Of a stretch of DNA of 22,254 nt, positions 19,573 to 22,254 are shown piece after piece. Positions within the stretch are counted from its first letter, which is position 1. Every line of letters starts with the position of its first letter. The stretch covers positions 1 to 22,254 of the IMG/VR virus record IMGVR_UViG_2529292906_000020, one strand, 5' to 3'. Under the pieces are notes generated by a model that saw only the letters and a program-made list of their open reading frames with translations, was not told the origin of the DNA and made no database searches. Source of the stretch: a virus (lineage: Duplodnaviria > Heunggongvirae > Uroviricota > Caudoviricetes). Made by a program: the position numbers and the translations under genes.

Positions 19573-19739
19573 TTTAATATCATGAAATATGTAAGCTCGT
19601 ATCGCTCTTGGGCGTCTGGAGGTATCGATGGATAAAGTCAAATATCCAACAGGCGTCGAAAACCACGGCGGCACATTACGCATCTTGAACCGCCCCGGAA
19701 ATCCTGGAGACTAAACTCCCTGAGAAAGAGGTAAACAGG

Positions 19740-20066
19740 ATGACTAAAAATACTCGTTTTTCCCCCGAAGTCCGTCAGCGGGCGATTCGTATGGTTCTGG
19801 AAAGTCAGGATGAATATGACTCACAGTGGGCGGCAATTTGTTCCATTGCCCCAAAGATTGGCTGTACGCCGGAGACTCTGCGTGTCTGGGTTCGCCAGCA
19901 TGAGCGGGATACCGGGGGCGGTGATGGTGGGCTCACCAGCGCTGAACGTCAGCGTCTGAAAGAGCTGGAACGTGAAAATCGTGAACTGCGCCGCAGTAAC
20001 GATATCCTTCGCCAGGCTTCCGCTTATTTTGCGAAGGCGGAGTTCGACCGCCTCTGGAAAAAATGA
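19740..20066 (+). CDS. IS3-family transposase OrfA (HTH, leucine-zipper region)
   Basis: 108 aa; ends at an A6 run (AAAAAATGA) where -1 frameshifting would fuse to OrfB. Confidence 0.85.
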
Positions 20067-20953
20067 TGCCACTGCTGGATAAGCTGCGTGAGCAGTACGG
20101 GGTCGGACCGGTATGCAGCGAACTGCATATTGCCCCGTCAACGTATTACCATTGTCAGCAACAGCGACATCATCCGGATAAACGCAGTGCCCGTGCGCAG
20201 CACGACGACTGGCTGAAGAGAGAGATACAGCGCGTATACGATGAAAATCATCAGGTGTACGGTGTGCGTAAAGTCTGGCGTCAGTTGTTACGGGAAGGAA
20301 TCAGGGTGGCCAGATGTACAGTGGCGCGCCTCATGGCGGTTATGGGACTTGCCGGTGTTCTCCGGGGTAAAAAGGTCCGCACTACCGTCAGCCGGAAAAC
20401 CGTTGCCACAGGTGACCGCGTAAACCGTCAGTTCGTGGCAGAACGTCCTGACCAGCTGTGGGTGGCTGATTTTACTTACGTCAGCACATGGCAGGGCTTC
20501 GTCTATGTGGCGTTTATCATTGATGTGTTTGCCGGATACATCGTGGGGTGGCGGGTCTCATCGTCTATGGAAACGACATTCGTGCTGGATGCGCTGGAGC
20601 AGGCGTTGTGGGCCCGTCGTCCGTCTGGCACCATCCATCACAGCGATAAAGGCTCTCAGTATGTGTCACTGGCCTATACGGAGCGACTAAAAGAAGCCGG
20701 ATTACTGGCATCAACAGGGAGTACAGGCGACTCGTATGACAACGCGATGGCTGAGAGCATCAATGGTCTTTACAAAGCGGAGGTAATACACCGTAAGAGC
20801 TGGAAAAACCGTGCAGAAGTGGAACTGGCCACACTAACGTGGGTGGACTGGTATAACAATCGACGATTGCTGGGAAGGCTGGGCCATACTCCTCCGGCAG
20901 AAGCAGAAAAAGCTTATTATGCTTCCATCGGAAACGATGATCTGGCAGCCTGA
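20063..20953 (+). CDS. IS3-family transposase OrfB (DDE catalytic domain)
   Basis: 296 aa in -1 frame relative to OrfA, overlapping its stop. Confidence 0.85.
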
Positions 20954-22254
20954 GTTCACAGATAAAACACTCTCCAGGAAACCCGGGGCGGTTCATCTGG
21001 TTTAATTTTAAAGGTAAACGTGTCAGGGAAAATCTTGGTGTCCCTGACACTGCCAAGAACAGGAAGATCGCCGGGGAACTGCGGACATCAGTATGTTTTG
21101 CCATCCGCACAGGAAGCTTTGATTATGCTGCACAGTTCCCTGACTCCCCCAACCTTCAGGCTTTTGGGGTAAGTAAAAAAGAAATTACGGTGAAGGAACT
21201 TGAAGAAAAGTGGCTGGATCTGAAACGAATGGAAATCTCTGCAAATGCATTCAATCGCTATGAATCCGTTGCAAGAACGATGGTTCCGAAAATTGGAGGC
21301 AGTAGACTGGTGTCATCGGTAACCAAAGAGGAATTGCTGTATATCAGGAAAGATTTGCTTACCGGGTATCAGAATTCAACGAAAAACAAAGCAGCAGCAA
21401 AAGGACGGAGCGTCGTTACTGTAAATTATTACATGACGACAATCGCTGGAATGTTTCAGTTTGCTGCAGATCACGGTTACTTAGAAGCAAATCCCTTCCA
21501 GGGAATTAAGCCTCTTAAAAGAGCCAGGGCAGAGCCAGATCCGCTAACTCGTGACGAATTTATTCGCCTGATAGATGCTTGCCGACATCAGCAGACGAAA
21601 AACCTGTGGTCATTGGCTGTGTACACAGGAATGCGTCACGGTGAACTGGTCTCCCTGGCCTGGGAAGATATCGATCTGAAGGCAGGAACAATTACCATCA
21701 GGCGCAATTATACGAAACTTGGTGAGTTCACTCTACCGAAAACTGAAGCAAGCACAAACAGGGTTGTGCACCTTATCCAGCCCGCTATCAGTGTCCTGAA
21801 AAATCAGGCTGAAATGACAAGACTGGGTAAGCAGTACAACATCAAGGTGCAACTACGTGAATATGGACGTTCAGTGAACCATGAATGTACTTTCGTGTTT
21901 AACCCTCAAGTGGTTAGAAAAAGCGAACAGGTAGGTTTTGTCTACAAAGTCGATTCTGTAGGTGACTCATGGGAAACAGCCATTAAGCGTGCAGGGATCA
22001 GGCATCGAAAGGCATACCAGTCACGACACACTTATGCGTGCTGGTCATTATCTGCCGGAGCAAACCCAAGCTTCATTGCCAGCCAGATGGGCCATGCAAG
22101 TGCCCAGATGGTATTCAATGTATACGGAGCATGGATGACTGACAGCAATGCAGAACAGATCGCAATGCTGAATCAGAAGCTGACAGATTATGTCCCAATG
22201 ATGCCCCATAGTCACCAAAGTGACACCAGAGGCTTATTAAAATCAGTAAGTTAA

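Follow-up and report, generated by a model that had tools for sequence, protein, structure and literature searches.

An IS629 Insertion in the Integrase Gene of a phiP27-like Prophage at yecE and Its Predicted Effect on Prophage Excision

Organization of the Locus

The stretch of DNA considered here, which we will call the window, is 22,254 nucleotides long and corresponds to positions 2-22255 of contig AIFV01000017.1 of Escherichia coli assembly GCA_000249595.2 (the contig locus being identical at 20864/20864 positions). Its right-hand end carries an excisionase gene (xis) lying 55 bp upstream of an integrase gene (int), which is divided into two parts by a complete insertion sequence (IS) of the IS629 type (Table 1). 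The excisionase is 100% identical to the excisionase family protein of the AR_0372 prophage. Downstream on the contig, the int stop codon abuts yecE, which is followed by yecN-cmoA-cmoB-torZ, and the yecE context is found in the relatives of the prophage too; yecE is a known integration site of Stx phages with the same neighbor genes (PMC9751135).

The closest relatives of the window are prophages at yecE, carried for example by strains Nord58 and AR_0372; they cover 95% of the query at 98.4% identity, and int is uninterrupted in all of them. Among named phages, Escherichia phage PhiR49_2 aligns with 54% of the window at 94.8% identity and the Stx2e phage phiP27 with 49% of it at 88.9% identity, and the integrase obtained by joining the two parts of int is identical to that of PhiR49_2 at 437/437 residues and 95.6% identical to that of phiP27. 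With these two yecE-integrating lambdoid phages the window shares the Xis-Int order at the prophage end and the yecE-yecN-cmoA-cmoB neighborhood, but their int is unbroken, and the window differs from them further in lacking stx genes. From these similarities, we assign the window to a lambdoid prophage of the phiP27 type that is integrated at yecE, of which it makes up the early half.

Table 1. Coordinates of the excisionase gene, the divided integrase gene, and the inserted element in the window
Feature	Position	Strand	Basis
xis-like excisionase gene, 78 aa, intact	19336-19572	+	Pfam PF06806 (DUF1233, putative excisionase), E=9.5e-33
Integrase start codon, ATG	19628	+	Translation
int 5' stub, nt 1-58 (19 codons + 1 nt)	19628-19685	+	tblastn
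TCT target-site duplication, left copy	19683-19685		
Complete IS629, 1310 bp, co-oriented with int	19686-20995	+	
Left terminal inverted repeat (IRL)	19686-19710	+	Matches 25-bp mobile_element end annotated in AJ304858
IS629 orfA, 108 aa, HTH_Tnp_1	19740-20066	+	Pfam PF01527, E=2.4e-12
ALIL pseudoknot, IS3-family -1 frameshift stimulator	20021-20137	+	Rfam RF01497
A6 slip site, where orfA and orfB overlap	20058-20063	+	
IS629 orfB, 296 aa, DDE/rve catalytic domain	20063-20953	+	Pfam rve (PF00665, E=9.2e-28), HTH_21, rve_3
Right terminal inverted repeat (IRR)	20971-20995	+	
TCT target-site duplication, right copy	20996-20998		
int 3' part, nt 59-1314 to stop codon, without its own start codon	20999-22254	+	
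First in-frame candidate restarts of int 3' part	GTG 21190 (codon 84), ATG 21229 (codon 97)	+	

The condition of the remainder of the early region was assessed by translating each annotated coding sequence of the AR_0372 prophage and searching it against the window. With the exception of int, all 28 of the 28 comparable genes align at full length without interruption, among them the genes for a methyltransferase (methylase), Q, RusA, a DUF968 protein, a DnaB-type helicase, a DnaC-like ATPase, and both Rha-family proteins, as well as a cro-like gene, a LexA-family (S24 peptidase) CI-like repressor, an HTH protein, and Xis. The SASA esterase gene also aligns uninterrupted and is clipped by the left edge of the window. 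Most of the aligned early genes are 98-100% identical to their AR_0372 counterparts, the two Rha-family genes being 85-89% identical, and precomputed Pfam matches for the source contig agree with the early-gene assignments. In a mosaic region, one ead/Ea22 gene matches in part and one hypothetical gene is without a match. Integrase is thus the only split gene among the AR_0372 prophage genes compared, and the statement of the initial annotation that the regulatory and replication module is intact holds for the content of the window, that is, for the early half of the prophage. The contig begins at the left edge of the window, and the genes for lysis and morphogenesis are carried by a different one, so the prophage may have further defects besides the one in int.

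The Insertion and Its Empty Site

When the AR_0372 integrase is used as a tblastn query, residues 1-19 map to window positions 19628-19684 and residues 19-437 to positions 20995-22251, in both cases at 100% identity. Between the two parts, the insert begins at 19686 with TGAACCGCCCCGG and ends at 20995 with CCGGGGCGGTTCA, and it is flanked by a direct repeat of TCT that is not extendable to 4 bp or more. Joining 19628-19685 to 20999-22254 yields 1314 nt and an open reading frame of 437 aa without an internal stop. The restored 1642 bp (19300-19685 plus 20999-22254) matches E. coli 2015C-3121 (NZ_CP027340.1) exactly; there, RefSeq annotates an excisionase and a single uninterrupted tyrosine integrase of 437 aa (WP_000362005.1), and after them yecE (DUF72), yecN, cmoA, and cmoB. 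The same 1642-bp empty site is present at 100% identity in dozens more complete E. coli genomes, the spacing of the flanks in complete genomes being exactly 2955 minus 1313 bp, and the empty site holds a single TCT.

Because the restored sequence is an exact empty site found elsewhere, a clean insertion is proven and no statistics are needed; this is a transposition event that can be established from sequence alone. The proposal that the integrase frame is restorable by excising 19686-20995 together with one TCT, and that TCT is a target duplication, is thereby upheld. The same proposal had put the insertion after codon 19, and here the clean insertion stands and the exact point does not: the element follows nt 58, with which codon 20 begins, and the target-site duplication (TSD) spans codons 19 and 20.

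The Inserted Element

We identify the insert, by its sequence features, as a complete copy of IS629, which belongs to the IS3 family. It starts with TGAACC and finishes with GGTTCA, so that the IS3-type 5'-TG...CA-3' termini are present, and its 25-bp terminal inverted repeats match at 22/25 positions. The ALIL pseudoknot is recovered over the full model (1-117) with 121.5 bits, the gathering score being 50, and a predicted -1 slip at the A6 site would produce a 404-aa OrfAB without an internal stop. Over the full length, 1301/1310 positions (99.3%) agree with the copy that is annotated as IS629 in phage CP-1639 (AJ304858), the same 1301/1310 identity is found with the entry labeled "IS629 transposase" (HQ424691), and the IS629 of VT2phi_272 is likewise 99.3% identical. 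These identities were judged against GenBank-annotated copies rather than the ISfinder reference sequence. Copies identical at 1310/1310 positions occur in several E. coli and Shigella plasmids, and this IS629 variant therefore circulates. The assignment to an IS629-like element of the IS3 family that had been made at the outset, with its suggested comparison to IS629, is borne out by these matches.

IS629, whose isoforms include IS1203 and IS3411, is the dominant insertion sequence of enterohemorrhagic E. coli (EHEC) O157 and of Shigella. The window copy resembles it in its length of 1310 bp, the imperfect 25-bp inverted repeats, the overlap of orfA and orfB with its predicted -1 frameshift, the ALIL pseudoknot, the DDE/rve domain, the 3-bp TSD, and the choice of a prophage as target, and it differs from the CP-1639/O157 copy only by nine substitutions. 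These are grouped at IS positions 641-761 and cause three amino acid changes in OrfB, none of them a stop, and none in OrfA. The transposase of the window copy appears intact, with the proviso that in a draft assembly the interior of the element could be a consensus of several copies. Three more IS629 copies, in O103:H2 strain 12009, are bounded by 3-bp duplications (AAC, GTA, and ATC). Rump et al. found that IS629 makes TSDs of 3-4 bp, that it is not strictly bound to a target sequence, and that 62% of its copies lay in prophages or prophage-like elements (PMC3271280).

Consequences for Integrase and for Prophage Excision

In the restored protein, Pfam recognizes an arm-binding domain (Arm-DNA-bind_2, PF12167) at residues 7-70 and a catalytic domain (Phage_integrase, PF00589) at residues 202-395, an architecture that, by its domain content, is that of a heterobivalent recombinase of the lambda Int type. 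The two domains occur in one polypeptide only in the restored frame; no single open reading frame of the window as it stands encodes both. The int stub reads into the element and meets TAA at 19712-19714, giving a 28-aa peptide of 19 Int and 9 IS-encoded residues.

The first steps of the course of events can be read directly from the sequence: an autonomous IS629, moving by the copy-out-paste-in pathway, transposed recently into int at nt 58 in a single strain lineage and duplicated TCT. Its arrival reduced int to the 28-aa stub and a start-less 3' portion, and a product begun at codon 84 or 97 of that portion would be without the whole arm-binding domain. No functional heterobivalent Int would be made, as we infer, and the prophage would therefore have no Int/Xis-dependent excision or re-integration of its own. 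An SOS-cleavable CI-type repressor, the replication genes, Q, and Xis all remain intact, and induction would be expected to lead to derepression and replication in situ without excision. Exceptions would arise if a compatible Int were supplied in trans, or if precise removal of the IS, which for IS3-family elements is promoted by the IS-excision enhancer (IEE), restored int.

Two precedents carry the functional part of this argument. Fragments of lambda Int without the arm-binding domain (C65 and C75) give 0% recombination on attP/attB (PMC9791396), and for the Sakai prophages Sp3, Sp11, and Sp12, in which int is disrupted, an inability to excise had been predicted and no circularization was seen (Asadulghani et al. 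2009; PMC2669165). Because neither the lambda fragments recombine nor the int-disrupted Sakai prophages circularize, the conclusion that the int allele is almost certainly null, and that self-excision of the prophage is lost, is well founded by analogy, as is the prediction of the initial annotation that integrase is inactivated and the prophage locked in place. The analogy with the Sakai prophages lies in their being lambdoid prophages with a disrupted integrase gene, and its limits are that they carry further defects in repressor, recombination, and morphogenesis genes, whereas int is the sole visibly broken gene in the 22-kb early half of the window prophage and its lesion is a single, cleanly revertible event. 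Taken as a whole, we consider it highly probable that this is a recent IS629 insertion at int nt 58 of a phiP27-like yecE prophage, which leaves the prophage with no functional Int and no self-excision.

Leakiness and Reversibility of the Lock

Excision of IS629 is strongly promoted by IEE in a transposase-dependent manner (PMC9943667), and in E. coli O121:H19, a producer of Shiga toxin, the IEE-mediated simple excision of IS600, another IS3-family element, from lacZ restores the gene (PMC9397093). Since removal of the element with one TCT recreates the wild-type int sequence and the transposase appears intact, the lock may, by the same analogy, be reversible in an IEE-positive host, a caveat that the initial annotation did not carry. 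The two cases are alike in the loss of a gene to the simple insertion of an IS3-family element and in the restoration of the gene once the element leaves by simple excision; they differ in that for IS600 excision was demonstrated, in an IEE-positive host, and for the window element it is a prediction.

The lock could thus be leaky in a subpopulation, either through IEE-assisted excision of IS629 or through a compatible Int supplied in trans by another prophage, and complementation of one prophage by another does occur in O157 Sakai (PMC2669165). Against this, precise IS excision is rare without IEE (PMC9397093), and kin phages whose early region is the same possess a different integrase, of 428 aa, beside mlrA/yehV, which suggests another att specificity rather than cross-complementation. 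The int-disrupted Sakai prophages, moreover, do not circularize despite the many other integrases and the IEE in that genome. A leaky lock is on balance unlikely, and a probable loss of self-excision is the reading that we retain.

Age, Distribution, and Other Broken int Alleles

None of the 5426 complete E. coli genomes searched contains the int/IS629 junction of the window, and a 41-mer spanning it has no match in the one-genome-per-species contigs of GTDB or in JGI metagenome contigs; by exact-protein look-up, it is found only on the source contig AIFV01000017.1. Both flanks and the element are 100% identical to copies elsewhere, and there has therefore been no decay since the insertion. 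We take the insertion, from this distribution and identity, to be recent, private, and sporadic. In O103:H2 12009, the only complete genome to cover at least 80% of the query, a different IS629 sits in the neighboring DUF5406 gene and int is intact, so that this candidate for a second occurrence was rejected.

The exact intact 437-aa protein is encoded on at least 1000 contigs and the exact 341-aa 3' product on 8 to 20 contigs, the latter look-up detecting only lesions upstream of codon 97. In the Logan contigs SRR28786192 and SRR28646885, 29 nt of an outward-facing IS629 left end are followed by int, which resumes at nt 44 in the former and at nt 191 in the latter. The IS629 end in both contigs is one base off the window copy, in the opposite orientation, and of a different IS629 subtype, and we interpret the two as independent IS629 insertions in the same int; neither junction occurs in any of the 5426 complete genomes.

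In other assemblies int has a premature stop, at codon 26, 30, or 46, or else a small indel; sequencing error may account for some of the indels.

Such broken alleles might be read as a sign that inactivation of Int is selected, prophage fixation being of benefit to the host (domestication), or that transposition has a hot spot near the start of int. The two further samples with IS629 at nt 44 and nt 191, and the nonsense mutations and indels of several assemblies, would fit such a reading; but the 5' clustering follows from ascertainment, broken copies are rare beside the intact ones, none of the three IS629 junctions is present in a complete genome, and some of the indels may not be real. 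A hot spot was examined in its own right and rejected: two of the three sites lie within 15 bp of each other in the 289-nt detectable span, for which we estimate p ~0.3. We regard selected or site-directed inactivation as very unlikely, and a sporadic insertion remains our preferred explanation.

A further idea, which we can put forward only as a long shot, combines the reversibility discussed above with induction: in an IEE-positive host, read-through from xis-int into the co-oriented IS629 transposase might raise excision of the element, so that the lock would be reversible and coupled to induction. Were this true, int would be regenerated exactly when it is needed, and the insertion would be a switch on prophage mobility and not a dead end; independent IS629 insertions in int of other samples would fit a recurring switch of this kind.

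Residual Activity, Assembly, and Novelty

It is hardly credible that a truncated Int, started at GTG 21190 or ATG 21229, still excises the prophage. The 3' part does retain the whole catalytic domain, and gene callers report the 341-aa product that starts at M97, but both starts lie past the arm-binding domain, and the analogous lambda fragments C65 and C75 are inactive on attP/attB. No recognizable Shine-Dalgarno motif precedes either start, and a promoter scan of the region found one weak site against a shuffle mean of 1.7, which is the level of chance; rescue of the 3' fragment by an outward or hybrid promoter, or by a restart, was rejected on these two grounds.

The chance that a copy of IS629, a multicopy repeat that commonly confuses assemblers, was misplaced into int in this draft whole-genome shotgun source is close to negligible, because a mis-join would not yield the signature of transposition, here precise IS ends and a perfect 3-bp duplication with both junctions inside a 169.8-kb contig, and TSDs of 3 bp likewise flank the three other IS629 copies of O103:H2 12009.

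IS629, the gene that it struck, the type of phage, and the kind of event had all been described before, and what is new is only the junction in the window, in one draft genome. There is no new element, mechanism, or family here, since prophage genes interrupted by IS629 and prophages with a dead integrase are both well documented, and the insertion is a real event of an ordinary kind and of low novelty.

Significance

IS629 positions serve as strain markers in EHEC, and for this reason the insertion in int of the window prophage matters for EHEC typing. For the biology of the phage, it means that an otherwise intact-looking, SOS-inducible yecE prophage is predicted to be unable to leave the chromosome by itself, which bears on its spread.

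Integrase lesions in other assemblies

IS629 insertions independent of the one in the window were also seen in other samples within the same integrase gene, int. In two Logan contigs, a 29-nt outward-facing IS629 left end stands at the contig start and is followed directly by int, from nt 44 in SRR28786192_173 (L020:1-120) and from nt 191 in SRR28646885_338 (L021:1-120); both ends are in the opposite orientation to the window copy, with an IR that is a 1-nt variant. A third contig, in GCA_012097065.1 (L022), begins at int nt 192. None of these int junctions was found among 5426 complete genomes. 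The same int allele is also disrupted by point mutations or indels in other assemblies, namely by nonsense mutations at codons 26, 30, and 46 (loci L016, L018, and L019) and by indels (loci L012, L013, L014, and L017), one of which, in AIFW01000028.1, shortens an A6 run to A5 close to codon 80. Some of these lesions may not be real mutations but errors from homopolymers or long-read sequencing.

The IS629 variant of the window

All nine differences between the window IS629 and the CP-1639/O157-type copy fall inside 121 bp, 20326-20446 (IS positions 641-761), a clustering that suggests that IS629 subtypes recombined over this patch. Plasmids carry the identical variant.

The yecE end of the prophage

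In RefSeq-annotated relatives, the coding sequence of yecE (DUF72) begins 19 bp upstream of the stop codon of int, corresponding to window positions 22236-22254, with the gene continuing downstream on L001 and L004 (both with the empty site) and L015 (the source-contig locus); because it starts inside the end of int, the prophage end provides the yecE frame with its 5' end. The homologous yecE prophage end of E. coli O103:H2 12009 (L002, NC_013353.1 2185701-2195180) contains three IS629-type copies in 9.5 kb. A DUF5406 gene is split by one of them and yecE itself is truncated by another, but this strain has kept an intact int.

Late-regulatory region and left edge

The gene order of the late-regulatory region (window 1-5619, - strand) is that of Stx phages, without the stx genes: where Stx phages carry stxAB, between the tRNAs and the esterase, the window has a 489-bp gap.

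Features of the late-regulatory region
Feature	Position	Strand	Remarks
Q antiterminator	4924-5619	-	
DNA methyltransferase	2061-3110	-	
Three tRNA genes	1762-2011		Arg-TCT, Arg-TCG, and one with a CAT anticodon (Ile by RefSeq annotation of a relative)
SASA/NanS-p-type esterase	1-1272	-	Cut by window edge

Window position 1 all but coincides with one end of the source contig (position 2 of AIFV01000017.1), within the multicopy esterase gene, and since the contig ends at this left edge, another contig carries the half of the prophage with the lysis and morphogenesis genes.

Mosaicism and integration modules

Two Rha-family genes (Phage_pRha/Phage_ASH; 11282-12961, - strand) have a protein identity of 85-89% to those of AR_0372, the closest relative prophage at yecE, and the genes on either side of the pair are 99-100% identical to it; judged by these identities, the pair looks like a swapped mosaic module. 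An identical 287-aa Rha-family protein is encoded at six loci in other genomes (L005 and L007-L011), in which the same early/replication region is joined to a different, 428-aa integrase adjoining an MlrA-family (mlrA/yehV) gene. This phage backbone is therefore associated with at least two int/att modules, at yecE and at yehV.
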